The notes: generated by a model from the sequence alone, not told the origin. Numbered from the stretch's first letter, positions 23,534 through 45,319 are shown. The stretch: 64,000 nt of DNA from Candidatus Poriferihabitaceae bacterium (GCA_965221795.1 OZ244914.1:826030-890029); one strand, 5' to 3'. Program-made: numbers and translations.

Positions 23534-23657
23534 CTGTCAAAATTATGCCTCGTTTAGAACAAAGCCACAAAAAATGGGCCCATGGCCCATCCAATTCACA
23601 CAGCAAGCACCACCGAAAGTCTTCATCCCGGGAGTGCCAAACCATACCACTTTGCAG

Positions 23658-23683
23658 AAAAACAAAACCCCGCATCAGCGGGG
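23658..23683 (-). terminator. Rho-independent terminator or attenuator inside repeat copy 1
   Basis: On the minus strand: CCCCGC-TGAT-GCGGGG followed by TTTTGTTTTT. Copy 2 has the equivalent at 38089..38114. Confidence 0.6.
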
Positions 23684-23830
23684 TCGCTTTTCAATCCGGT
23701 CAGATTGGTAGCAGGGGCTGGCCACGATGACACCGACCGCTGATCACGGCCCGCGATATAGCCTCTCAACCCGCAACATTAGCCGCGTTACTGCCAACCC
23801 TAGAGGAAGTACGTGACTGTCAGGGCGGAT

Positions 23831-23860
23831 ATTATAACCACTTGGCTCGGCGTTCATCAA
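23831..23860 (-). promoter_or_regulatory. sigma70-like promoter inside repeat copy 1
   Basis: On the minus strand: TTGATG, 18 nt, TATAAT. Directed toward rimP. The same motif occurs in copy 2 at 38262..38291. Confidence 0.5.
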
Positions 23861-24119
23861 GGGGTGGTGTACTGGCACAAGGACCTACGTATGGCATATT
23901 TACCAGCGCCTTCCTGGTTGCTCTTTCCTACAACACCATTCGAGGGGAAATTTGCTGTTAGTCTGCAAGATTTTCCATTAATGTACTTATTGCAAAATTG
24001 AGCAAAAAACTCCGAATAATGGCCATCTGAGATGTCTTTCAGATAATCATCCAGATCAACATCCTTAAGATCTTCCCCACCATCGAAGTCTGGCTGCTTA
24101 ATTTGGTATTCCCCCCTTA

Positions 24120-26257: not shown

Positions 26258-28633
26258 TCAGACTTCCAGTGTAGATTGAATAAAAAGCTCATCATTATTA
26301 TGTACCAATCGGTACCCCATCGCTGCATACCCCTTGCAGCGACGCTGGAACATGCGCTGCAACATTGGTAATGAGCTGTCGACATAGTCGTAAATCGTCA
26401 CTTTCTTTTTGTTTGCAGCTACTCTATGAATACGTCCTGCGTACTGCACAAGTGAGCCTTTCCAGGAAATGGGCAGTGTTAGGAATAGTGTATCCAGTCT
26501 GGGAAGATCAAAGCCTTCACCAATATACTTGCCAGTCGCAATCAACACTTGCGCAGTTGAGGCTTTTTCCATGACTTGTGCTCTCTCTTTAGCTCGCATT
26601 GCTCCACGTAAAACAAGGGTCTGATATCCCCGGCTGGACAGTGCTTCGCTAAGTAAGCCAGCATGTTCTCGCCGTTCCGTTAACACCAAGGAGCTTCGGC
26701 CAAGTTCAATCTGATCGGCAACATCCTGCACGATTAACCGATTCCTCATATCGGATTCCATCAGCCATCGGTAAACGTCTGCGATTTGCAGCTTCGCCTC
26801 TGAGGCTAATGTTACAGGCGGCCTTCCTGCTACTGGCCTGACGATGACATGCTGCTCAAAATGATCTGTCTTATCGCTTTTAACCCGATGACGGATAGGG
26901 CCTGCCTGCATAAAGATAATCGGATGATGGCCATCCTGCCGTTCCGGTGTGGCGGTTAGGCCGAGAACAAAGCGTGCCCTGACATCGGACAAAAGGCGAT
27001 CATAATTCGGTGCTGATACGTGATGGCACTCGTCGATAATAACCTGACCATAGCTCAGCAGTAATGGATCCACGCTGTTATCCTTTTTGCTCAACAAGCT
27101 TTGGTAGGTAGCAATATCAATACAACCAGTCGGTGTGCGCTTGCCCCCACTAATGGCACCAATGTCGGCACCATCCAGAAAAGCCGATAAGCGTTCCTTC
27201 CATTGATCGAACAGTTGTCGAGTATGAGTCAGTATCAGGGTGTTAGTCTTGCGTTTGGCGATTACACCAATGGCGGTTATCGTTTTTCCAAATGCCGTTG
27301 GCGCATGGAGAATCCCCACATCGTGAGCGAGTAATTTCTTAACCGCATGCTTCTGCTCTCCACGCAGTTCACCCAGAAACCGGATATCTTTCAAGCGCTG
27401 TCCTGCTTCCCGTTTATCATCAATCTCAATCACAATATTCTGCTCAGTGAGTAATTGCCGAATATCATCAAGACACCCACGGGGAACAATTAAGTAGTCC
27501 TGCTCGATGCGAGCCAAGCTGATATAGCGAGGAATGCCGTGGGTACTGAACCGCATCGCTTGTGTTTTAAAGAATACCGGATTAGCAAAACTGGCCTGGT
27601 GTTTCAGGCGGGCCAACAATTTTGATGGCAGAGTGCTGACTGGAATAAACACCTGATTCGCCAGTACGATTTTCAGTCTCACCGGGCAATTCTCGACCTT
27701 TGTGTGGTCGGCAGGAATACCTTGCTCCCAAGGCTTGGCTTCTGTTTCCGGCATTTCCCCTTCGAACTGGTGGAGAAGCCTATGCAGTTTGTCGAGCGCA
27801 AGCCGATTCAGTCTGCTAAGAAACTGCCACTGATCGGTGTAAGCGACTAGATACTGATCAACAAAAACTGAGTTTCCGTATTGACGAGGCTGGCGCTGTA
27901 AAGGTAGCGCGATCAAATTGCCGAAACCACCGCTTGGCACTGAATCCTGATTCGGAAATAAGCGATCATAGGAGTCAAATGACAAGCCTGGATAGCTTTC
28001 CATTGCGCAGCCCAGTAATCCAAATCCCAAGCGCCGCGCATCTCTTGCGGATACCTTGTTTTCAAAGAAAATCCAGATATGTGCGCCATTTCCGGAACGG
28101 GAGCGCTCTATAGCATAGGGAACGTTATGGAATTCACAAGCTTGCGCGAATGCTTTTGCTGCCTGCTGCCAATCCGATTTGTCAAAATCCACCGCCAACA
28201 ACCGACAGGTATCGTCGCGCATGAGCGGATATAGCCCAACTGTCTGGAAGCCGGACAAGTGTTCAAATATGGCTCTGGGTTCCAATGCTTTATAGGCCTT
28301 ATTGGTGCATTCACCGCATTTGATTTTTGGTTTGTTGCATAAACCTGGTCGCCATTCGTTATGGCAGGCCACTGCATAGCCGCTTTTCCCTGTACTGTTT
28401 TCCCACCGGAGGGCGTAGATATCTTCTCTGCCGACAAAGAAATTCTGGAATAGCGAGACTTTCTCGTTGGGTGAAAGTGTAGATGAGGTGGCAATCAAAT
28501 TTGGGGGCGTAGACCCCAACTGAGACTTTCGAGCAAGTAATCGTGATTTTTCTTCTTCCAGTTCCTGAAGCCGTTGATTGATCGATTCGACTTCCTGAAT
28601 GATATGGGATCGATCATCAGTAGCCACAAACAA
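26258..28633 (-). CDS. archaeo-eukaryotic primase (AEP/PrimPol-like) domain fused to an SF2 DEAD/DEAH helicase
   Basis: AEP motifs LLAVDFD, SGNGAHIWIFF and YDRLFP, plus a Cys cluster (CNKPKIKCGECTN). Helicase motifs APTAFGKT, IIDECHH, LGLTATP and YAGRIHR. Confidence 0.75.
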   Translation of the reverse strand: MFVATDDRSHIIQEVESINQRLQELEEEKSRLLARKSQLGSTPPNLIATSSTLSPNEKVSLFQNFFVGREDIYALRWENSTGKSGYAVACHNEWRPGLCNKPKIKCGECTNKAYKALEPRAIFEHLSGFQTVGLYPLMRDDTCRLLAVDFDKSDWQQAAKAFAQACEFHNVPYAIERSRSGNGAHIWIFFENKVSARDARRLGFGLLGCAMESYPGLSFDSYDRLFPNQDSVPSGGFGNLIALPLQRQPRQYGNSVFVDQYLVAYTDQWQFLSRLNRLALDKLHRLLHQFEGEMPETEAKPWEQGIPADHTKVENCPVRLKIVLANQVFIPVSTLPSKLLARLKHQASFANPVFFKTQAMRFSTHGIPRYISLARIEQDYLIVPRGCLDDIRQLLTEQNIVIEIDDKREAGQRLKDIRFLGELRGEQKHAVKKLLAHDVGILHAPTAFGKTITAIGVIAKRKTNTLILTHTRQLFDQWKERLSAFLDGADIGAISGGKRTPTGCIDIATYQSLLSKKDNSVDPLLLSYGQVIIDECHHVSAPNYDRLLSDVRARFVLGLTATPERQDGHHPIIFMQAGPIRHRVKSDKTDHFEQHVIVRPVAGRPPVTLASEAKLQIADVYRWLMESDMRNRLIVQDVADQIELGRSSLVLTERREHAGLLSEALSSRGYQTLVLRGAMRAKERAQVMEKASTAQVLIATGKYIGEGFDLPRLDTLFLTLPISWKGSLVQYAGRIHRVAANKKKVTIYDYVDSSLPMLQRMFQRRCKGYAAMGYRLVHNNDELFIQSTLEV

Positions 28634-29093
28634 ACACCGCTGTCTTCAATAAATGCTCGCCTTCAGAAATGAAGAATAAGTAGCATATTTTATGGAGGAT
28701 AGGGAAAACCTCCACACCGTTATCAGTGCAAGCGTAGGAAATACAGCCAGATTCTACGGGATATTGAAAACCCCCGTTCCAGTTATCGCCCTTGAATACG
28801 GCAAGATCAATATCTTCCAAAAAACGATGCAGCAGGCGATAAGCCTTAGACAGGGATGTTCCACCCTTGAACACAACATCATCGACGTGGACTGATTCAG
28901 ACAGATGTTTCAGTGACTGAGTGACCCAATAACCTTTTTCACCATACACCTGCGGCAAGCCAAAAGTTTCAGCGGCTAGCGGCACAAATTCGGAAAAAAC
29001 CTCATTGTCTTGATATCGATTCAATTGTTTCTTGTAACTCTTGCATCCCTGACGCTCAACGCGCTGTCGACTTTCTTGCAACGAAGAACTCAT
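28617..29093 (-). pseudogene. N-terminal fragment of an AbiEii/AbiGii-family nucleotidyltransferase toxin
   Basis: GEKGYWVTQSLKHL and FKGGTSLSKAYRLLHRFLEDIDLAVF match the AbiEii N-terminus. The sequence then loses family character and stops at about half the usual length. No AbiEi partner is present. Confidence 0.5.
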
Positions 29094-29844
29094 ACCCGTA
29101 GCTTTCCGGGTAGGACTCACGAATCGCAATCTCTTTTCGAACCGAATCGATCACTGACAGGCCAATTTCATCATTCGCATACTTCTTCTCCAAGGCGGAT
29201 AAGCGCTGAACAAGCGGTGAATAGTAGCCGTCCCACCAAGCACTGTCTGGCAACGTAAAATGTTCGAGATGCTGATACCCCGCGTTCTCAATTTCTGCAA
29301 CGATGCTTTCTCGCCCAGCCATTGCCGGATACTCGTCAGAGAAAAAGGTCAAGGCGTCATCTGGCGGGCTATCGGTCAGCCAGACAAGTTCCGTGAACGC
29401 CAAGTAACCACCGCTCTTAAGCAGAGGCTTCCACTTCGATAGCGCGTTGGGAACGCCCATGATGTAGGCCGACCCTTCCGCCCACACGAGGTCAAAACTC
29501 TCCGGTTCGAGCGGCAGATCGTTCATGTCCGCCGGCAACACTTCGATGCGGTTTGCAGTCCCCTGCTCTTCAGCCCGAAACCGAAGTTCGCTTAAGTAAG
29601 GGTCGTGGAAATCGACCGCCGTGATCATTGCATCGGTTTTAATCTCGGCAATGTCGAGCGTTTGCGCGCCTGGACCGCAGCCGATATCCAACACGCGGGG
29701 GCTTGACGGGAGTTCGGTACACAGTTCGAGCGCCTTTTGCGTACTCTTGGCATCGCCGGGGCCCTGCCGCGGCAAATCCGACTGGACTTCAAAGAAAACT
29801 TCCATCATATGCTTATCGGTCTGCGAAGACTCTAGATCACTCAT
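29056..29844 (-). CDS. class I SAM-dependent methyltransferase
   Basis: Motif I VLDIGCGPGAQTLDIA. AGGAG lies 5-6 nt upstream of the ATG at 29844. Confidence 0.8.
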   Translation of the reverse strand: MSDLESSQTDKHMMEVFFEVQSDLPRQGPGDAKSTQKALELCTELPSSPRVLDIGCGPGAQTLDIAEIKTDAMITAVDFHDPYLSELRFRAEEQGTANRIEVLPADMNDLPLEPESFDLVWAEGSAYIMGVPNALSKWKPLLKSGGYLAFTELVWLTDSPPDDALTFFSDEYPAMAGRESIVAEIENAGYQHLEHFTLPDSAWWDGYYSPLVQRLSALEKKYANDEIGLSVIDSVRKEIAIRESYPESYGYEFFVARKSTAR

Positions 29845-31744: not shown

Positions 31745-31826
31745 GGTCTATATATAGACCGCAATATCTATAAATGATCCATATATAGATCATTTTCTTG
31801 ACAAGATATGATGAATCGAGTACTTT
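31745..31826 (+). promoter_or_regulatory. hipBA promoter with palindromic operators
   Basis: Perfect 16-bp palindrome GGTCTATATATAGACC (31745..31760). Near-palindrome ATGATCCATATATAGATCAT (31774..31793). Then TTGACA (31798..31803), 17 nt, TACTTT. Confidence 0.5.
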
Positions 31827-31884
31827 GGTTCATAGAAAGATCATAAAGCATTCTTATGGTCTATATACGATACATTTAAGAACG

Positions 31885-32223
31885 ATGCCAAAGTCTATTA
31901 CACGTACCTACTCCCGCTACAGCCGCGATGCAACCGCATTGCTCGCCGGGCTGATCCGTGCAGCGCGAAAGGAACGCCAGTTGACTACTCAGGAGTTAGC
32001 AGACCGCGCTGGCATTTCGAGAGGATTGCTGCAACGCATTGAAAAAGGCGATCTCAAGTGCGAAATTGGTGCTGTTTTCGAAGTGGCCACCATTGTTGGT
32101 GTCAAGCTTTTTGAGGCTGATGAAAGAGCGCTGTCCAAACACCTGAGCCAGACGAAGGATAAACTAGCGCTATTGCCAAAGTCCGTTCGCAAGAAATCGA
32201 AGGCGGTACGCGATGACTTCTAA
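31885..32223 (+). CDS. hipB: HipB-like XRE-family antitoxin
   Basis: HTH QELADRAGISRGLLQRIEKG. Overlaps the hipA start by 11 nt. Confidence 0.75.
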   Translation: MPKSITRTYSRYSRDATALLAGLIRAARKERQLTTQELADRAGISRGLLQRIEKGDLKCEIGAVFEVATIVGVKLFEADERALSKHLSQTKDKLALLPKSVRKKSKAVRDDF

Positions 32224-33472
32224 CAGCGACAAAGAAGCCTTCGTTTGGATTTGGTTGCCGGACGAAACCACGCCAGTGGTTGCCGGACGGCTGGAAGCGG
32301 ACAATGGCAATGTTCTGTTCAACTATGGACAGAGCTATCTGAAGCGCATCGGCGATCAGCCTTCCGCAATTCCGATCTACGAACCCGAGTTGCCGTTACA
32401 AGCCGGAGCGTTGCCGCTACCGGAAGGATTAACTATGCCCAGTAGTATTCGGGACGCTGCCCCCGATGCGTGGGGTCGGCGTGTAATGATTAACAAGAAG
32501 CTCGGTCTCGAGGGCTCTGATACGGACACCGCCGAGCTGGACGAGTTGACCTATCTGCTGGATTCCGGCTCTGATCGGATTGGTGCGCTCGATTTTCAGC
32601 ATTCACCGACCGAGTATGTACCGCGTGTCGCCAACAACGTCAGCATGGAAGAACTGATTGAATCCGCTGGGCGCGTCGAGAAAGGCGTCCCGCTCACGCC
32701 CGAACTGGATCAGGCATTGTTCCACGGCAGCTCCATCGGCGGTGCGCGCCCCAAAGCCCTGATCCAAGATCAGGGCAAAAAGTATGTTGCCAAGTTTTCA
32801 TCCAGCACCGACCTGTACAGCGTTGTAAAGGCCGAATTTATCGCCATGCGGCTGGCACATCTTGCCGGGTTGAATGTCGCGCCTGTAAAGCTGGTCAAGG
32901 CCGCGAAGAAAGACGTGCTGCTGATTGAGCGCTTTGACCGCCAACAAAAAGATGGAGGCTGGTCACGCCGCGCCATGGTCTCGGCACTAACGCTGCTCGG
33001 GCTGGATGGCATGATGGCGCGCTACGCCAGCTATGAAACGCTGGCCGAAACCATTCGCCACCGATTCACCGACCCGAAAGATACCTTGAAAGAGTTATTC
33101 TCACGGCTGGCTTTCAATATTCTGTGCGGCAACACTGACGACCATGCCCGCAATCATGCCGCTTTCTGGAATGGCAATTCACTGACATTGACGCCAGCGT
33201 ATGACATCTGCCCGCAAGGGCGAACAGGCAACGAGGCGTCTCAGGCGATGCTGATATCAGGCAACAACAATATGAGTCAGCTCAAATCCTGTGTTGAAGC
33301 GGCGAATCATTTCCTGCTCTCGGAGGACGATGCCCGAGCAATCTTCGGCCATTTGACCGAATCCATCGAAAAGCATTGGGACTTGGTATGCGAGGAAGCC
33401 GAATTGAGCGAAGTGGACAGGAAACTTTTCTGGGGAAGGCTGTTTCTAAACCCTTATTCGACTGAACAATAA
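32213..33472 (+). CDS. hipA: type II toxin-antitoxin system HipA-family kinase toxin
   Basis: GSDRIGALDF, GSSIGGARPKAL and the catalytic CGNTDDHARNHA motif. 419 aa. Confidence 0.9.
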   Translation: MTSNSDKEAFVWIWLPDETTPVVAGRLEADNGNVLFNYGQSYLKRIGDQPSAIPIYEPELPLQAGALPLPEGLTMPSSIRDAAPDAWGRRVMINKKLGLEGSDTDTAELDELTYLLDSGSDRIGALDFQHSPTEYVPRVANNVSMEELIESAGRVEKGVPLTPELDQALFHGSSIGGARPKALIQDQGKKYVAKFSSSTDLYSVVKAEFIAMRLAHLAGLNVAPVKLVKAAKKDVLLIERFDRQQKDGGWSRRAMVSALTLLGLDGMMARYASYETLAETIRHRFTDPKDTLKELFSRLAFNILCGNTDDHARNHAAFWNGNSLTLTPAYDICPQGRTGNEASQAMLISGNNNMSQLKSCVEAANHFLLSEDDARAIFGHLTESIEKHWDLVCEEAELSEVDRKLFWGRLFLNPYSTEQ

Positions 33473-33698
33473 GCAGCCGCTTTGAAAAGCCCATTGATTC
33501 AAACGACATTAATGGAATTTTTTCCAAGATTGACGATCTTGAACTTGAGGAAACGCCGAAAGTCATGATCGACGTGCGCGTATTTCATCAAAAGCCATTG
33601 CCTCCGGCCTAAACGAAGACAGAATGCCATGCCCATCGGCAAGGCATGGGGACAGTCAACGATCAATGGCAACCGAAAACGCGGCACGGGCATTTTGA

Positions 33699-33840
33699 AC
33701 AATCACCTCTATCGGTGAACTGATCTGGAACCGCCAACGGTTTATCAAAGACCCGGCTACGGGACATCGTGTCCCTCGGTTCAACCCTGAATTCGAATGG
33801 ATACGCCAGAATGTGCCGGATTTGGGTATCCTGATGGACG
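33699..33840 (+). pseudogene. fragment of a large serine recombinase (about 47 codons)
   Basis: IGELIWNRQRFIKDPATGHRVPRFNPEFEWIRQNVPDLGIL matches the conserved 'recombinase' domain segment of large serine recombinases. It has no start and abuts IS21 debris. Confidence 0.45.
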
Positions 33841-34560
33841 GTGACCGGCTTCCACTCGGCGAACTCGTAGGGCTCCCGGGGCAGTGGCTTCCCGGCCGGC
33901 TGGTCAATCGGCTCGAAGAGTTCCCGGCGGGAGCCGGGAGCTTCGGGAACGGCTTGCGGTGGCGCTTCTCCCGCAGCCCCCGGATCTCGGCGTTGACCTC
34001 AGCCAAGGAGCAGAACGGCCGGTTGCGCAGGGACGCGAGGATCCACCGCTCCGCCAGTAGCACACTCCACTCCGCGGGGGCCTGGTCCCGAGGTTTGCCA
34101 ACGCGCGCCGGGACCACGGCCACGGCCACGGAATCGTGGTCCGCCATCTCCGGGTTGATGGGGTGAAGGTCGGGATCGTACCGGTGGGCCTTCGTCACCG
34201 CGGACCGTAGATGGTCCGGCACGACGATCTCGACCACGCCGCCCAGGGTTTCGAAGCCGCGCGGGTGGGACCCGATCCAGTCCTCCAGACCCTGGCTCCT
34301 GATGACGTCGGCATCGGGGTACCCCGATGCCCCCAGCGCTGCGACGAAGACCTGCGCTGCCCGCACCTCCCCGCTCCACCGGTCGAGGATCTCTACCGTC
34401 CTGCCGGCATCATCGACCAAACCGCTTCTCCCCCGCCTGGTGGTCCGGCCGCATCACCCGATCCCGCTTCCCGGCCCCGTGGCGGTCGTGCCGGCAGAAC
34501 CCGGAGGACTCGGTTCCTCCAGAGTGCGGTTCCCGGGATTCCTACCCGAGCAGGAGCCGG
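33840..34560 (-). pseudogene. IS21-family IstA transposase fragment, frameshifted
   Basis: HQAGEKRF, VFVAALGASGY, HPRGFETLGGVVEIVVPD and RYDPDLHPINPEMADH follow the IstA core, spread over two frames. A further IS-end-like hairpin lies at about 34565-34650. Confidence 0.6.
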
Positions 34561-34819
34561 GTTACACCCTTGTGGCCTCCGAGTCGGACGGTGTCCCACC
34601 GCGGGTGCTTGCGACCCCCTGAAACAGACTTTTCAGGGTCGACTCGGTAACCTCACGCTAGAATGGATCGTCATCGCCAGCGCCAGACAATTCGTCGAAA
34701 TATGCGAGATTCATCTTCTCTTCGAAGAACTTCTTTGCAGTCATGTTCTTGTAAGCAATCCGGTCTTTTCCGACGTTCAGCATTGCAGCAATACGCGACC
34801 GTCCATCTTCGATACGACC

Positions 34820-35746
34820 TTACACAAGGTCTGGCTTGTCTTCAAAAATTGGAGCCACGACTAAGACTTTGAGGTACTCGCTACGCGTAATGGCCTGTCC
34901 AATAAGACGGTTCACATAGTCGTCGCTGAAACTATAGCCAATAACGACAATAAACCGCAGCGCCTCATTCAATGAGTATTTACGAAGCTCATGCACGTAG
35001 AATAGGTAAGGATCAATTGAACTCAATTTCGCGGCAGTACCGAAAATCAGTTCAGGGTTTGGCTGCGGGTTGTCGCATAACGTCAGTACGCCGCGATTAG
35101 TCTTGTCTCTGATCCAGTCTATAGAGCCATGCAGCTTGTAAAGATACACTTCAACATCTGCATTCTCATTGGTATCGAATTTTGACGCTTCCCACTCTCG
35201 GTCGCTGTTGAACCCCAATTCAATACTAAAATCCGTACCAGCGAGGGCTTTCTCGACGCAGATATCGTAGTTGAGCGTAAAAACGCGCACTGCGCTCCCA
35301 GGATCAGATACTAAATCTCTAAATCCGCGAAAATAGTTCGACCTGTCATAGTTGCTGATATTTATCCATTGAAAGAGTTGTGAGCGTATTTTCTTGTCCA
35401 GTTTGGCGACCATCTCAAACTCTTCCCCGGCTACTTTTAGAAGATGGATGTTCCAGCCGCCTATAAAAGGATACAGCTTGTTCTGATGCTTCTGGTTTAT
35501 CTCTGATAGCACGTCTAACAGCTCTTCAATAGTAGCGGTCTGCTCTTCGAATGCGCCCTCAAGTCCTCTCTGATAGATAATCGAGCTTTTTAGGTAGTTA
35601 TACAGTTCGTAAAACTCTTTGAAATCTGTGTCAGATCGTATCTTCTCTTCGATATCAAGCGTCATTGCCTTTGCGTGCTTGATCCCTGCATCCACGCTGG
35701 CTCCGGCCCCTAGAAGAAACAATAACGAATCTTCTCTTAAACTCAT
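34820..35746 (-). CDS. stand-alone SIR2-family (SIR2_2-like) protein, predicted NAD+-consuming effector
   Basis: LLGAGASVDAGI (NAD-binding loop), FTLNYD, LYKLHGSIDW (catalytic His) and VVIGYSFSD. AAGGAG SD. Only 13 nt downstream of the Argonaute stop. No APAZ-like extension. Confidence 0.85.
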   Translation of the reverse strand: MSLREDSLLFLLGAGASVDAGIKHAKAMTLDIEEKIRSDTDFKEFYELYNYLKSSIIYQRGLEGAFEEQTATIEELLDVLSEINQKHQNKLYPFIGGWNIHLLKVAGEEFEMVAKLDKKIRSQLFQWINISNYDRSNYFRGFRDLVSDPGSAVRVFTLNYDICVEKALAGTDFSIELGFNSDREWEASKFDTNENADVEVYLYKLHGSIDWIRDKTNRGVLTLCDNPQPNPELIFGTAAKLSSIDPYLFYVHELRKYSLNEALRFIVVIGYSFSDDYVNRLIGQAITRSEYLKVLVVAPIFEDKPDLV

Positions 35747-35759
35747 TTTGTTCTCCTTT

Positions 35760-37658
35760 CTACAAGAACCATGGCGCTAATGACTTAGCGCTCACGATGT
35801 TCATGTCGTTAACGTTTTCAAGATGCGAAAACTCCCTCATGAATTTCGCAATAAGCCTTGAATACAGGATCGAAATTGGCTGGGCTTTAGAATTGAACCC
35901 GCGCCAATTAGCGCCTGTCAGATTCAAGATATCCTGAAGACACTCCTTCTTTGTTGCCCATTCCTCTTGTGACTTAATAAAGTCCACGTACAATGGCTCC
36001 GAGACTCGCTTGTGCAGCACCTCTTTTCCGTATTGCAATCCTTCGGCCCATATCAAAAACTCGTTTTTTGATATCTGAACATACGTGCTCTCATAAGGAA
36101 CGCAGGTATTGTGATCGCTAAATCCAAGGAATTTGTGCTTGGTATTTACCCGTATGACGATGACCTCGAACTCGTCCGCTTTTCTGATTTCCGAAACGAC
36201 CGCTTTGATAACTTCGATCTCTTTTCGGCTGATTTTGTAGGGTAGATGCAAAACGAGCGATTTGTAGTGGTCACCAAGCTCGCTTTGCAAAACTTCCTTT
36301 AGATTAGTTTGCAGGCTACCTAGATAGGTTTCTTCGTTGTTCGATGACGAGAGAGGCTTAGTGTATTTGAAGTCGCCACTGGAATCTAAACAAACCGTAT
36401 ACGCGGTATATCTTGTCATATTGCCTTGAACTCTTTCCTGCACACTCCCCAACCCAAAAATCAGGCAGTTGCTTTTGGCAGGCTGTACTAGCCAAGGTGC
36501 GCCTCCAAGCTTGCTAAATATCTGCAACCCAATATTGGATACAGACCATTTCAATTGATCCTTTTTAAAGAAAGTGTCTTCAGTGACAACCTGACAATAT
36601 GCATCGTTTCTCAATGCCATTAGCTTTAGATGGCCGTAGGCGTCGTAAGCTGCTTCTACGCCCTTGAAGCCTTTCGGAAGGACTGCTACGAGCATCACCT
36701 TGCTATTCATGTGGGATGCCTTGAACTGCTGTACACGACCTTCGATAGCTTCTATTGCGTCTGCGTCAAACATGCTTACTAGATGATGCTCAACGATGTC
36801 TTTGTGAATTGGTACAGAGAACATCTTCTCTAAGCCAGAGAACTGACCCGGAAACAACTTGCCAACTAGTCCAAGATAGATATCTCTCGCTAACGACCGC
36901 GTTCTCTCGGTGAAAAGAAAGAGATACCTAACATCGTCATCCATGCGACGGTACGGCCCGTTGGCCCTAATTCCCATGAACTGCGACTTGGCTGTTTGTC
37001 CACCACCAACTAGATAGGTCTTTACATCAAGCTTTTTGGCGGGCAGAGAAGAAAATTCGCTGATAGCAAGGCCGGAATTCGAAAGTAACGGTGAGAGCAC
37101 GTCCTTGGTGAAGTTCTCAAGGGTCGATTTCTTGTCCTTGTAGAAATAGATGTTTGGTTTTCCAGACTTATCGAGAGAGAAGCTTCGGATTTGCGTCTGC
37201 CTGTTAAACGGCTGATCGTCTTTGAGGGAGAACTTGTGTTCAATGAGAAGCCCAAATTGCCTTTTTCCCTTTAGGAAATAAGGCTTGACAATTAGCTCAG
37301 TATTTCCTTCGCCGAACTTCTCTGTAACAAAGCGAACCTCCTTCAGCGTAATGGCCTTCTCAGGAATGTAGTAATCAAGTTCTCCAGCTTCGATCGTTTT
37401 CAGAAAGTCTTGGTATATGAGATGCACTGTCAGAACAGGATTCTGAGAATACTCGAACTGGTACGCTTCGTAACCGTCTCGCTCGACGGTAGATACATCA
37501 AACAACACCCATTCCTCATCACCCTCTTGCGCGGGCAAATTGGCGCGAAAATCCTCGTCCTTCTTAGCAAGAGAACTGTCATGGACACGGATTCGATACA
37601 CTGTTACGCTATTGTCTTGTTTGAGCAGAGGAACAAAGTTCAATGCGATGCTATCCAT
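35760..37658 (-). CDS. prokaryotic Argonaute (MID-PIWI with a ~240-aa N-terminal region), catalytically inactive
   Basis: PIWI hallmarks: NIGLQIFSKLGGAPWLV (KLGGAPW at 36492..36512), NWRGF...PISILYSRLIAKF, and C-terminal APWFL. Catalytic positions are replaced (IFGLGS, LHLPYK). MID Y-K..Q..K pattern (AYGHLK...CQVV...SKLGG). Start is ATG 37658, with GGAGG 8 nt upstream, or 37664. Confidence 0.85.
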   Translation of the reverse strand: MDSIALNFVPLLKQDNSVTVYRIRVHDSSLAKKDEDFRANLPAQEGDEEWVLFDVSTVERDGYEAYQFEYSQNPVLTVHLIYQDFLKTIEAGELDYYIPEKAITLKEVRFVTEKFGEGNTELIVKPYFLKGKRQFGLLIEHKFSLKDDQPFNRQTQIRSFSLDKSGKPNIYFYKDKKSTLENFTKDVLSPLLSNSGLAISEFSSLPAKKLDVKTYLVGGGQTAKSQFMGIRANGPYRRMDDDVRYLFLFTERTRSLARDIYLGLVGKLFPGQFSGLEKMFSVPIHKDIVEHHLVSMFDADAIEAIEGRVQQFKASHMNSKVMLVAVLPKGFKGVEAAYDAYGHLKLMALRNDAYCQVVTEDTFFKKDQLKWSVSNIGLQIFSKLGGAPWLVQPAKSNCLIFGLGSVQERVQGNMTRYTAYTVCLDSSGDFKYTKPLSSSNNEETYLGSLQTNLKEVLQSELGDHYKSLVLHLPYKISRKEIEVIKAVVSEIRKADEFEVIVIRVNTKHKFLGFSDHNTCVPYESTYVQISKNEFLIWAEGLQYGKEVLHKRVSEPLYVDFIKSQEEWATKKECLQDILNLTGANWRGFNSKAQPISILYSRLIAKFMREFSHLENVNDMNIVSAKSLAPWFL

Positions 37659-38003
37659 GTGCATGTCCTCCGTTTCGGCTGCTCGTCAAGTCTTCCAGAA
37701 ATTCGGAAGGTACTTCACCGCTGGTTACCAACAGACGATCTCTAGCCCTCGTAAATGCCACATACAGCAAATGTCGTTCGGTGTCGTAGACTTCTTCCAA
37801 ATCAGCGTTGTCGGCTACTCCTTCTATCCGCTCTTGTGAGGGAATGATTTCATCGTCGCACGCCATGACCACGATCGCTTTGAACTCCAACCCCTTAACC
37901 AAGTGCATCGTGCACAATGCCGCGCTTCTGTGCGCCAAGTAGCTATCCAGTAGCTCGTATGGAATATCGGCTCTTTCTAGCACCGCTTTTGCGCGATCTA
38001 ATT
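37651..38003 (-). pseudogene. C-terminal fragment of a UvrD/Rep-type SF1 helicase
   Basis: TMHLVKGLEFKAIVVM and LLYVAFTRARDRLLV are SF1 motifs V and VI. The 5' end is cut at the edge of repeat copy 2. Its stop overlaps the Argonaute start (ATGGATAG). Confidence 0.7.
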
Positions 38004-38295
38004 GGGGCCCATGGCCCATCCAATTCACACAGCTAGCACTTACCGAAAGTCTTCATCCCGGGAGCGCCAAACCATACAACTTTTCCAGAAAAACAAAACC
38101 CCGCATCAGCGGGGTCGCTTTTCAATCCGGTCAGATTGGTAGCAGGGGCTGGCCACGATGACACAAACCGCTGATCACGGCCCGCGATATAGCCTCTCAA
38201 CCCGCACCATGAGCCGCATTACTGCCAACCCTAGAGGAAGTGCGCGACTGTCAGGGCGGATATTATAACCACTTGACCCGGCGTTCATCAAGGGG
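38004..38295 (-). repeat. copy 2 of the ~290-bp direct repeat
   Basis: Aligns with 23576..23864. Contains the same TTGATG-18-TATAAT (38262..38291), the CTGCTACCA segment and the terminator (38089..38114). A G10 tract follows. Confidence 0.85.
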
Positions 38296-39058
38296 GGGGG
38301 GCGGAGCAGACCGACGGTTGGGTTCGGTTGCCGGGCGAAGGGATGGCGGGGCAGGAGTGGAGGTGCCCGTAGGTGCGGGCGGACCGGCAGGCCGGAGGGA
38401 CGCGGTACCGATGCCGGCGGCGTCGGGTCCAGAAGCCGAACGGGCGCGGGGGGCGTCCTGCTGGACGGGGCCATATCCCGGATCGAGTGGACCTTGCGGA
38501 GCGGCCTTCGGTGGTGGCCGAGAAGAGCTGGATCGGCGATTGGGAGCGGGAACCGATCCTTGGCGCGAGACCCCGGGGGAGCGGGTATCAGCAGCGGATC
38601 GGGGCTCGAAGTTCCGGTTCCTGGAGTGGGTGGAGGGCCAGACCGCGGCTGCGGTGACCGCGACGCTCACCCGGCGTCCGGGTCCAGTCCGGGACCGGGT
38701 CCACACCGGCACGGCAGATAACGGCAAGGAGTTCGCGAGGCATCGGGAGATCGCACAGAAGCTTGATGCGGGCTTTTACTTTGCCACCCCCTACCCTTCC
38801 TGGGAACGGGGCCGGAACGAGCACCCCCATGGCCGGGTGCGCGAGTACTTCCCGAAGGGCACCGACTGCCGCCAGGTGCCCCCGACACTCCGGGCCCTCC
38901 GGTGATCCACCGGAGCGGCCACTCGACCTCCAAGTTCCGAACTCGCCTTTGCCTTGGCCGATGGCTTCGCTCAGGATCACCGGCCGTCGAGATGGGTGCC
39001 ATCTGAGGTCGAAAAAAAGGCGTTCGCAGCGCGGGTGCACTTCGGACTGGCCCCGGGG
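38296..39058 (+). pseudogene. IS30-family element remnant (5'-truncated, frameshifted)
   Basis: Transposase pieces (ADRQAGGTRYRCRRRR, DRGSKFRFLEWVEGQTAAAV, TADNGKEFARHREIAQKLDAGFYFATPYPSWERGRNEH) lie in several frames. A terminal IR sits near 39030-39058. Confidence 0.6.
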
Positions 39059-40917: not shown

Positions 40918-40971
40918 AAAATAACCTTTGTATAGTCCATAAAACATCTATATGTGATTTATTATAGAGCA

Positions 40972-41310
40972 ATGCCCAAATCTATTAGACGCACCTATTC
41001 ACGTTACAGCCGCGATGCAACGGTATTGCTTGGGGGGCTGATCCGTGAGGCACGTAAAGAGCACAAGCTAACTGCACAGGAAGTAGCCGACCGTGCGGGC
41101 ATTTCCAGAGGCTTCCTGCAACGCATGGAAAAAGGCAACCTCAAGTGCGAAATCGGTGCTGTGTTTGAAGTGGCCACCATTGTCGGAGTGAAGCTCTTTG
41201 ACACCGACGAGATCACTCTTTCCAGGCACCTGAAACAGACCAGGGACAAGTTGAGTCTGCTGCCAAAGTCCATTCGCAGAAAACCCAAGGTGGTACATGA
41301 TGACTTTTAA
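40972..41310 (+). CDS. hipB: HipB-like XRE-family antitoxin (second copy)
   Basis: MPKSIRRTYSRYSRDATVLLGGLIREARKE...QEVADRAGISRGFLQRMEKG. Roughly four-fifths identical to the 31885..32223 product. Confidence 0.75.
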   Translation: MPKSIRRTYSRYSRDATVLLGGLIREARKEHKLTAQEVADRAGISRGFLQRMEKGNLKCEIGAVFEVATIVGVKLFDTDEITLSRHLKQTRDKLSLLPKSIRRKPKVVHDDF

Positions 41311-42562
41311 CGGCGAAAGGGAAGCCTTCGTTTGGATTTGGTTGCCGAATGAGACTACGCCCGTAGTGGCCGGACGGCTGGAAGCTGACAATGACCATCT
41401 CCTGTTCAATTATGGCAAGAGCTATCTGGAACGGGTTGGCGGCCAACCCCCATCAGTGTCAATTTATGAGCCCGAATTACCGCTGCAGGCCGGAATGCTG
41501 CCGCTGCCGAAAGGGTTGACCATGCCTGGTTGTATTCGGGACGCCGCCCCCGATGCGTGGGGGCGACGTGTAATTATCAACAAGAAACTCGGACTTAAGA
41601 ACGCTGGCATGGATACAGCCGAGCTGGGGGAATTGACCTATCTGCTGGAATCCGGTTCTGACCGAATTGGAGCACTCGATTTTCAGTATTCGCCGACCAA
41701 GTACGTACCGCGCTCTGCGAACAACGTCAGCATGGAAGAGCTGATAGAGTCTGCTGAACGGGTTGAAAAAGGCATCCCGCTTACACCTGAACTCGACCAG
41801 GCCTTGTTTCATGGCAGTTCCATTGGCGGTGCCCGTCCCAAAGCACTGATCCACGAACAGGGCCAAAAGTACGTCGCCAAATTTTCTTCTGGCACTGACT
41901 TATACAGCGTGGTTAAAGCCGAATTTATCGCGATGCGGCTGGCTGGACTGGCAGGCCTCAACGTTGCACCGGTCAAACTAACCAGCGCTGCTAACAAGGA
42001 TGTATTGCTCATCAAGCGCTTTGACCGACTGCCCAAAGGTGATCACTGGTCACGTCGAACAATGGTCTCCGCTCTGACCATACTGGGTCTGGACGATATG
42101 ATGGCGCGCTATGCCAGCTACGAAGTATTGGCAGAGATTATCCGCCAGCGCTTTAGCGCCCCGAAAGAAACCCTCAGAGAATTGTTTTCACGTCTGGCGT
42201 TTAACATTTTGTGCGGAAACACTGACGATCATGCGCGCAACCATGCCGCTTTTTGGGATGGTCAGGAACTGTCGCTCACACCGGCTTACGATATCTGTCC
42301 TCAGGGCCGAACTGGCAACGAGGCCTCGCAAGCCATGTTGATCGTTGGAAACAATAATATGAGTCAGCTCAAAACCTGTCTCCAGGCAGCACATCATTTC
42401 CTGTTATCGGAAAAGGATGCCCGCGCAATTTTTGATCAACAGATCACCGCGATAAAGCAGCACTGGAGCGATGCTTGTGACGAAGCGACGCTTACTGAAG
42501 TGGATAGGAAGCTGCTGTGGGGTCGTCAATTCCTAAATGACTTTTCGATTGTTGCGAATTGA
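41297..42562 (+). CDS. hipA: HipA-family kinase toxin (second copy)
   Basis: Same motifs as the first copy (GSDRIGALDF, GGARPKAL, CGNTDDHARNHA). 421 aa. Confidence 0.9.
   Translation: MMTFNGEREAFVWIWLPNETTPVVAGRLEADNDHLLFNYGKSYLERVGGQPPSVSIYEPELPLQAGMLPLPKGLTMPGCIRDAAPDAWGRRVIINKKLGLKNAGMDTAELGELTYLLESGSDRIGALDFQYSPTKYVPRSANNVSMEELIESAERVEKGIPLTPELDQALFHGSSIGGARPKALIHEQGQKYVAKFSSGTDLYSVVKAEFIAMRLAGLAGLNVAPVKLTSAANKDVLLIKRFDRLPKGDHWSRRTMVSALTILGLDDMMARYASYEVLAEIIRQRFSAPKETLRELFSRLAFNILCGNTDDHARNHAAFWDGQELSLTPAYDICPQGRTGNEASQAMLIVGNNNMSQLKTCLQAAHHFLLSEKDARAIFDQQITAIKQHWSDACDEATLTEVDRKLLWGRQFLNDFSIVAN

Positions 42563-45242: not shown

Positions 45243-45319
<77 letters not shown>

Follow-up and report, generated by a model that had tools for sequence, protein, structure and literature searches.

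BPAS is an already characterised family of anti-plasmid defence systems, defined by Song et al. 2023 (PMC10620215) as a gene for a long-B prokaryotic Argonaute (pAgo) located upstream of a gene for a SIR2_2 protein, bAgaS. In the described system GbBPAS, GbbAgaS is toxic when expressed alone and the co-expressed pAgo suppresses this toxicity; the two proteins, GbAgo and GbbAgaS, co-purify as a stable complex in which the NADase is restrained (PMC10620215). GbBPAS functions as a two-gene system in E. coli, it is triggered by a plasmid with the CloDF13 origin to deplete NAD+ and kill the cell, and the N155A substitution in GbbAgaS abolishes NAD+ depletion (PMC10620215). Here, we have analysed a locus of this type in a stretch of 64,000 nucleotides from Candidatus Poriferihabitaceae bacterium (GCA_965221795.1 OZ244914.1:826030-890029), hereafter called the window. 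It is very likely that the locus is a two-gene BPAS, most probably in a disabled or decaying copy, and that the helicase stub lying upstream of it is no partner of the pAgo.

That GbAgo would take up a small RNA guide with a 5'-phosphate and recognise complementary DNA of the invader is suggested by its conserved MID pocket and by the findings for RsAgo and EcAgo. Up to a paper of September 2026, activity of BPAS had been demonstrated against plasmids, not phages, and our searches of the PDB and of the literature returned no BPAS structure. Loss of the PAZ domain also has precedents. Single-chain long-B pAgos with complete PAZ loss were described by Manakova et al. 2024 (PMC10954474), and a ThsA-like Sir2 is one of the two effector types found downstream of PAZ-less long-B pAgos (PMC10954474).

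A scan of the window for open reading frames (ORFs) returned three co-directional ORFs on the minus strand, encoding a UvrD_C stub, a pAgo and a SIR2 protein, at a chromosomal position between cysS/tRNA and nusA/infB of an uncultured, gammaproteobacterial-type genome:

35760-37664, minus strand: pAgo ORF, 634 aa; read from the ATG at 37658, the start chosen in public gene calls, it gives a protein of 632 aa (35760..37658), a long-B-type pAgo (bAgo) by Pfam Piwi, PADLOC pAgo_II, alignment with GbAgo and AlphaFold2/Foldseek
35747..35759, minus strand: intergenic spacer of 13 nt with the AAGGAG Shine-Dalgarno sequence of the SIR2 gene, read directly
34658..35746, minus strand: full frame of bAgaS (og_44), the SIR2_2 NADase effector, 362 codons in all, with codon 309 turned into a stop
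34820-35746, minus strand: the SIR2 ORF as read in the window, 308 aa
37651-38028, minus strand: ORF holding the helicase stub, 125 aa

The pAgo gene ends with TAG and is followed by the spacer aaaggagaacaaa, which contains AAGGAG, and then by the ATG of the SIR2 gene; on the other side, the stub ORF and the beginning of the pAgo gene have 8-14 nt in common. Both the 13-nt spacer and an operon that is richer in AT than its flanks of GC-rich insertion sequences (IS) had been pointed out in an original prediction made from the sequence alone, and both are borne out, the GC content being 45.8% in the operon, 65-66% in the flanks and 55% in the window overall. An Rfam scan matched nothing within the operon, its only matches across the window being two tRNAs and the signal recognition particle RNA, and no DNA near-identical to the locus was found in a plasmid collection or an E. 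coli collection. Directly 3' of the native SIR2 stop, at 34600-34657 on the minus strand, lies an inverted repeat (GACCCTGAAA...TTTCAGGGGGTC) that lacks a T-run and may be a transcript-end hairpin or the end of an IS.

That the first of the two genes encodes an Argonaute is supported by sequence and by structure prediction. The Pfam Piwi family matches the ORF (2.9e-14), and the PADLOC-DB model pAgo_II (PDLC02381) covers residues 3-634 over 617/617 model positions with an E-value of 1.5e-194. When the family profile was compared with PDB sequences, the closest were AfAgo (5e-30), EcAgo of BPAN (1e-26) and RsAgo (1e-16), all of them catalytically inactive long-B Argonautes. An AlphaFold2 model built from 48 homologues reached a predicted local distance difference test score (pLDDT) of 87.1 and a predicted template modelling score (pTM) of 0.86, and its best Foldseek matches were ternary complexes of RsAgo (E 1.6e-28, query-normalised TM-score 0.70). 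The Argonaute call of the original prediction is thus confirmed by the very profile searches and fold comparison that it had proposed. The approximate domains of the protein are as follows:

aa 1-146: N-L1 (approximate)
aa 147-171: short connector at the site of PAZ (approximate)
aa 172-~205: L2 (approximate)
aa ~206-335: MID (approximate)
aa ~336-632: PIWI (approximate)

The MID domain has retained the pocket for the 5'-phosphate of the guide. Its residues Y341, K345, Q356 and K383 are invariant among the 48 homologues and align with the pocket region of RsAgo, and the C-terminal PWFL is also kept across the family. The PIWI domain, on the other hand, is predicted to be catalytically inactive with its DEDX tetrad lost. 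We take the tetrad of CbAgo to be D541, E577, D611 and D727, residues 541 and 611 being the first and third Asp. In a direct alignment with the CbAgo chain of 6qzk, a crystal form in which residues 541 and 611 both read Ala, these two positions face G404/S405 and P473 of the window pAgo, of which G404 and P473 are invariant among the 48 homologues, and E577 faces the Ser-rich stretch S437-S439. Since the positions facing the tetrad are occupied in this way and the MID pocket is invariant, the earlier proposal of a dead slicer that still binds guides appears to be correct.

The PAZ domain is also absent. In a profile-profile alignment (hhalign), long-B relatives of 750-781 aa run collinear with the pAgo from end to end (probability 100%, E 6.9e-74). 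The only large insertions of the relatives, ~75-80 residues split over two neighbouring blocks, lie between positions ~146 and ~172 of the window pAgo. This is the place of PAZ, between the strands of L1 and the helix of L2, and the position agrees with the published domain map of EcAgo, in which PAZ comprises residues 155-218. The ~205 N-terminal residues, confidently modelled as N-L1-L2, can be aligned to the N-lobes of the long-B relatives. The absence of PAZ had been anticipated from the short distance to MID, and the gap in the alignment agrees with it.

Within the BPAS family, this pair of genes is typical. GbAgo (locus L031) has 630 aa and is 43% identical to the window pAgo (residues 4-632 of the window protein against 3-630 of GbAgo), and the window SIR2 shares 46% identity with GbbAgaS across residues 1-299. 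We searched 1.84 billion representatives of clusters at 50% identity for pAgo homologues and obtained 167 clusters at E<=1e-30; ~110 of the best 150 cluster representatives are 610-655 aa long and can be aligned with the window pAgo from the first residues to the last. In a neighbourhood survey by tblastn, we collected 92 loci with pAgo homologues (12 species-representative genomes, 80 metagenomes, plus the near-identical twin record of the window described below). Enough downstream sequence was available in 87 of the 92, and in almost all of these a SIR2 gene begins 5-32 nt 3' of the pAgo gene, the exceptions being a 91-nt gap in L012 and a deletion-fused remnant in L011.

At the sequence level, then, the locus has every defining feature of BPAS except a full-length effector. 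The original prediction had named BPAS as the closest arrangement, in line with the 43% and 46% identities, and it had also considered the operon non-canonical and its Argonaute scaffold unusually short. These two points fail, because a pAgo gene followed by SIR2 is the published BPAS order and recurs in the surveyed loci, because GbAgo and most of the best cluster representatives are of the same length, and because of the single-chain precedents cited above (PMC10954474). A PAZ-less scaffold of ~630 aa is the family norm, and the locus is new only as a further copy of a known BPAS.

Some of the other BPAS loci also look damaged. In L008 (8004-9911) the pAgo is split into two ORFs of 477 and 132 aa; in L009 (8001-9907) it is frameshifted; in L010 (9915-10982) the C-terminus of SIR2 diverges past residue 300; in L011 (8001-9571) an internal deletion fuses pAgo residue ~324 to SIR2 residue ~165; and in L081 (3491-3712) SIR2 has only 78 aa. 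Some of this damage may be due to errors of long-read assembly.

We now turn to the effector. The SIR2 ORF is matched by Pfam SIR2_2 (7e-11) and by the PADLOC model Aga_SIR2 (PDLC02408, E 5.4e-118), the latter over model positions 1-293 of 343 only. Residues G13/G15/S17, N159, D161 and H206 are present and invariant, N159 being the equivalent of the catalytic N155 of GbbAgaS. The residues predicted to contact NAD and to act in catalysis are thus where they had been said to be. The original prediction had further described the protein as a 308-aa effector consisting of essentially nothing but a SIR2 domain; the domain with its catalytic residues stands, and the length does not, as the gene is a frame of 362 codons cut by a TAA:

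34820..34822, minus strand: premature TAA stop (Q309*), reading CAA in the twin genome
34661..34819, minus strand: orphaned C-terminal module of bAgaS, conserved in the family, with the TAKxFF motif and the acidic DDDPF end

Past the TAA the frame is intact and runs on to 34658, the coordinate at which the locus of the original prediction starts. It encodes the conserved C-terminal 53 residues, ...MTAKKFFEEKMNLAYFDELSGAGDDDPF, homologous to the C-terminus of GbbAgaS, and Q309* costs the protein 54 residues that are conserved across the family. Among public records, the twin L001 (ENA ERZ25070844; 99% identity) resembles the window most, and it carries a SIR2 gene call of 362 aa that ends at window position 34658. 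Both alleles are on public record, that of 308 aa as P0248 on a 3.64-Mb contig and that of 362 aa as P0361 on a 1.03-Mb contig. Complete bAgaS ORFs at pAgo-linked loci (n=82) have a median of 351.5 aa and a range of 341-374 aa bar one disrupted copy; TAKxFF occurs in nearly all of them and an acidic terminus of the D-x-PF type in most. The window gene is best regarded as a truncated allele of a bAgaS family member, not as the founder of a separate family.

To see what the stop removes, we inspected an AlphaFold2 model (pLDDT 85.5) of a full-length homologue sharing 88% identity with the 362-aa bAgaS of the twin. In this model, residues 308-354 are folded into an ordered unit of helix-strand-helix-helix (pLDDT 92-95), followed by a disordered terminal hexapeptide (residues 357-362). 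Since residues 308-354 are ordered, the model indicates that the stop would remove an integral element rather than a loose tail. The operon differs from that of the twin by 9 substitutions and 0 indels. Two of the differences lie in SIR2, namely L149P (window position 35301) and Q309*, and both damage the window protein; the position of L149P reads I/L/V/Y/M in the other 49 aligned homologues, Pro being unique among the 50. At the two pAgo differences, the window has the family consensus residue. Q309* is probably a real allele, and an inactivating one. The ~99%-identical genomes with the 362-aa and the Q309* bAgaS would then make a natural allele pair, which singles out the C-terminal module, together with its DDxPF tail, as a candidate element for regulation or for docking to the pAgo.

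The upstream side of the operon is also altered, as the following two features adjoin each other there:

37651..38004, minus strand: 3' stub of a UvrD-family helicase gene, 117 codons plus stop; the last gene of a Res-Mod-helicase module
38005..38298: repeat of 294 bp, in direct orientation and 94% identical to 23576-23868; the breakpoint of the helicase gene

The helicase-derived DNA ends at ~38004, and the stub ORF takes its initial 8 codons from the repeat, not from the helicase. The two copies of the repeat lie 14.4 kb apart and bracket the stretch from Fic through pAgo-SIR2 to the helicase stub, with the far copy at the other end of the island; we did not find the repeat in related loci other than the twin record. 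Within it lies a strong terminator-like hairpin (38097-38116, minus strand; 8-bp stem, 6 GC pairs, T-run), and a sigma-70 scan detected no promoter-like site between this hairpin and the pAgo start, which is weak evidence. The repeat together with IS fragments has replaced the rest of the Res-Mod-UvrD module in the window.

How would such a system work, and does this copy work? The intact MID pocket, the dead PIWI, the missing PAZ, the kept N159/D161/H206 and the 43-46% identity suggest that the mechanism of GbBPAS would apply here in principle. The window pAgo would bind a 5'-phosphorylated small RNA guide in its YKQK pocket, with the 3' end left without anchoring by PAZ. The guide-loaded pAgo would pair with invader DNA and pass a conformational change on to the bound bAgaS, which would then hydrolyse NAD+ and bring about abortive infection or loss of the plasmid. 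As the effector is truncated and carries L149P, and as the upstream context of the operon has been replaced, the copy in the window is probably non-functional, a disabled or decaying BPAS. We speculate that, given the toxicity of free bAgaS, selection would favour inactivation of the effector once its regulation was lost.

Several points weigh against this view. The stop depends on one base of an assembly derived from a metagenome, where it could have arisen as a consensus error; a protein of 308 aa with an intact catalytic core might retain some activity; the guide type, the formation of a complex and the NADase activity are extrapolated from a relative of 43-46% identity; and the promoter scan is a weak test of lost transcription. 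If the TAA were an error of sequencing or assembly, or a minority variant, the genome would encode an intact and functional two-gene BPAS. That the stop is one C-to-T difference from the twin, that the window and twin records are both metagenome assemblies and that the frame past the stop is otherwise perfectly kept would all be expected of an error. However, 9 substitutions without indels resemble strain divergence rather than long-read error, L149P is likewise non-conservative and unique, the pAgo changes of the window fit the family consensus, and IS fragments have visibly degraded the island around the operon. We consider an intact operon hidden behind an error unlikely.

It is less plausible still that the 308-aa SIR2 is a functional, shortened effector, either held constitutively or regulated differently, or complemented by a separately translated C-terminal peptide. 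In its favour, every catalytic and NAD-binding residue precedes residue 309, and GbbAgaS alone is an active toxin. But no other bAgaS homologue of ~308 aa in full context was seen, the shorter database entries lying mostly on contigs of 1-6 kb; the lost segment is ordered, with pLDDT above 90, so that misfolding is likely; and there is no obvious restart signal. We would give this explanation little weight, and keep to a BPAS with an inactivated effector.

The original prediction had seen a helicase remnant in front of the pAgo gene and had suggested it as a possible third partner. The remnant is there, a UvrD_C stub overlapping the pAgo start (Pfam 2.9e-15) and 77% identical to the C-terminal end of the helicase of L005, which is intact and has 699 aa, although the first 8 codons of its ORF come from the repeat as noted above. 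A non-canonical system of three components, with an SF1/UvrD helicase, a short-scaffold pAgo and a stand-alone SIR2, could be read from the fact that an intact helicase ORF overlaps the pAgo start in L005 and L094 as it does in the window, and Ryazansky et al. list UvrD-type helicases among the genes enriched near pAgos. The wider distribution of the helicase does not bear this out. A homologue lies upstream of pAgo in 2/92 surveyed loci, the twin and L005, the latter supplying the intact upstream helicase that the proposed neighbourhood survey was to look for; the other upstream neighbours are genes of type I, II and III restriction-modification (R-M) systems and a DrmD-like SNF2 protein. The family of the L005 helicase has at least 8000 matches at E<=1e-20, the best 120 of which are mostly proteins of ~690 aa, compared with 240 pAgo matches at E<=1e-10.

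In L005, L094, L096-L099 and L100, the helicase gene comes third in a conserved module, found at L005:31-8014, L094:1127-9103, L096:1152-9088 and L100:1144-9076:

First gene: Res, ~1020 aa, with ResIII and RE_endonuc
Second gene: Mod, ~930 aa, with N6_N4_Mtase
Third gene: UvrD helicase, ~695 aa

The module is widespread and resembles a type III R-M system. Res and Mod consistently precede the helicase, and what follows it varies: pAgo-SIR2 in L005 and L094, an OLD/AAA_15 (GajA-like) protein, a UvrD-like protein and Peptidase_U49 in L096-L099, and a Cap4 nuclease in L100. The first cargo ORF overlaps the helicase stop by 4-17 nt in L005, L094 and L096-L099, so that unrelated cargo overlaps it in the same way as the pAgo; in L100 the cargo starts 33 nt past the helicase gene. 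The helicase of L095 has neither the module directly before it nor defence cargo downstream. That of L005 shows a weak RelE/HigB-like match at its N-terminus, and some sources name members of the family RelE/SF1-helicase.

The stub, moreover, has no ATPase motif at all, covering only positions 265-346 of 350 of UvrD_C, and GbBPAS works in E. coli with two genes. A system of three components is very improbable on these grounds. Because of the 2/92 co-occurrence, the Res-Mod context and the breakpoint at the repeat, the stub is debris of a neighbouring module and not part of the pAgo system.

It is conceivable, though we put it forward only as a doubtful idea, that Res-Mod-UvrD is a plug-in slot, in which abortive-infection cargos (BPAS, Gabija-like OLD/UvrD with U49, Cap4) overlap the helicase stop, are co-transcribed and are perhaps functionally layered. 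If so, BPAS in the lineage of the window would have relied on the Res-Mod-Hel operon for its expression, and loss of Res, Mod and the 5' part of the helicase would have orphaned it, with L149P and Q309* following as inactivation of an unregulated NADase. The recurrence of defence cargo directly behind Res-Mod-UvrD is in itself a neat example of the modularity of defence islands.

A short-pAgo system of the SPARSA type, in which the SIR2-APAZ gene lies upstream of the pAgo gene, shares with the locus a SIR2 effector paired with an inactive pAgo and has next to no chance of being the right assignment: the window pAgo is not reduced to MID-PIWI and has its own N-L1-L2 lobe, the SIR2 is free of APAZ (the PADLOC Class I model Aga_SIR2-PNTD1-PNTD2 matches residues 2-36 only, 35 residues), and the gene order is reversed, all as the original prediction had set the two apart, so SPARSA was rejected.

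The GC-rich ORFs directly flanking the operon had no match in Pfam, and NCBIfam identified them as transposase fragments of two IS families, the first downstream of the SIR2 gene and the second upstream of the helicase stub:

33656..34420, minus strand: IS21-family transposase fragment, NCBIfam NF033546, E 1.2e-30, positions 132-276 of 294
38240..38905, plus strand: IS30-family transposase fragment, NCBIfam NF033563, E 6.9e-27, positions 152-249 of 267

Fragmentary and frameshifted IS copies (IS21, IS30, IS5/DUF4096, DUF772) are found at 12.2-13.6, 29.8-30.9, 33.7-34.4, 38.2-40.9 and 42.7-44.7 kb of the window. Their GC content is 63-72% compared with ~54% in housekeeping genes, and several of them have segments in common that are 82-88% identical. 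Most of the differences between the window and the twin record fall in the stretch at 38-39 kb (83 differences, 45 of them indels).

The genes of a defence island named in the original prediction (hipBA, Fic, an AbiEii fragment and an AEP-helicase) are all present, and the island is ridden with IS. Two hipB-hipA pairs, at 31798-33472 and 40954-42562, both on the plus strand, flank the pAgo operon, with HipA of 419 and 421 aa; they are clear paralogues at the protein level with no match by default blastn (megablast). Only the first pair is syntenic with the intact island of L094, which reads cysS, Res, Mod, Hel, pAgo, SIR2, hipAB, Fic. A fusion of an AEP-TOTE primase-like domain (PF22548, E 6.5e-95) with a ResIII/DEAD helicase, 791 aa, lies at 26258-28633 on the minus strand and is preceded at 28617-29129, on the same strand, by an AbiEii fragment (only the first ~47 model positions) and a class I methyltransferase. 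It is a further gene of the conflict-system kind within this island. At the island boundary a tRNA gene (45246-45319, minus strand) adjoins cysS, and the Res-Mod-Hel-pAgo-SIR2 block of L094 likewise starts beside cysS. As the window island and the L094 block both adjoin this gene, the cysS side appears to be a conserved insertion hotspot.

The locus thus adds one more, probably defective, member to a family of several hundred that is recognised by standard defence-finder profiles. Its closest described counterpart is GbBPAS (GbAgo HAG96803, GbbAgaS HAG96802; PMC10620215). The two are alike in the two-gene operon of pAgo followed by SIR2_2, in the inactive PIWI, in the absence of PAZ and in the length of the pAgo (630 and 632 aa); the catalytic Asn is N155 in one and N159 in the other, and the C-terminus with TAKxFF...D-x-PF is also found in the 362-codon frame of the window. 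They differ in that the window bAgaS is cut at codon 309 and has L149P, and in their genomic settings.

EcBPAN and RsAgo (PMC10620215, PMC13535254; PDB 23wq, 5awh) are long-B systems that gave the best PDB matches in sequence and fold. They share with the window the YKQK pocket of MID, the C-terminal WFL, the dead PIWI and an effector encoded directly downstream. However, their pAgos have 731-778 aa and keep a reduced PAZ (EcAgo 155-218), and the effector is a PD-(D/E)XK nuclease instead of SIR2. Co-purification, seen for GbAgo with GbbAgaS, did not occur for EcAgo with bAgaN. The top PDB sequence match by family profile, full AfAgo (Manakova et al. 2024, PMC10954474), has the same N-L1-L2-MID-PIWI organisation with complete loss of PAZ, but it is split into two polypeptides, unlike the single-chain window pAgo, and the effector encoded downstream of it represents the other type, in which an alpha-helical domain is joined to an effector domain.

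SPARSA follows the same logic, in which a guide-loaded inactive pAgo licenses a SIR2 NADase to deplete NAD+ in abortive infection. Its equivalent of N-L1-L2, APAZ, is fused to the SIR2 domain, its pAgo consists of MID-PIWI only, the gene order is reversed, and its SIR2 belongs to a subfamily different from that of the window. The closest solved folds to bAgaS are those of SIR2-HerA (Nezha) and then Thoeris ThsA (Foldseek E 2.6e-15 to 8e-7), both defence NADases with the N/D/H catalytic constellation of bAgaS. Their partners are a HerA ATPase or a SLOG sensor domain and no Argonaute, and in comparison with them the C-terminal module and the DDxPF tail of bAgaS are specific to the pAgo-associated family.

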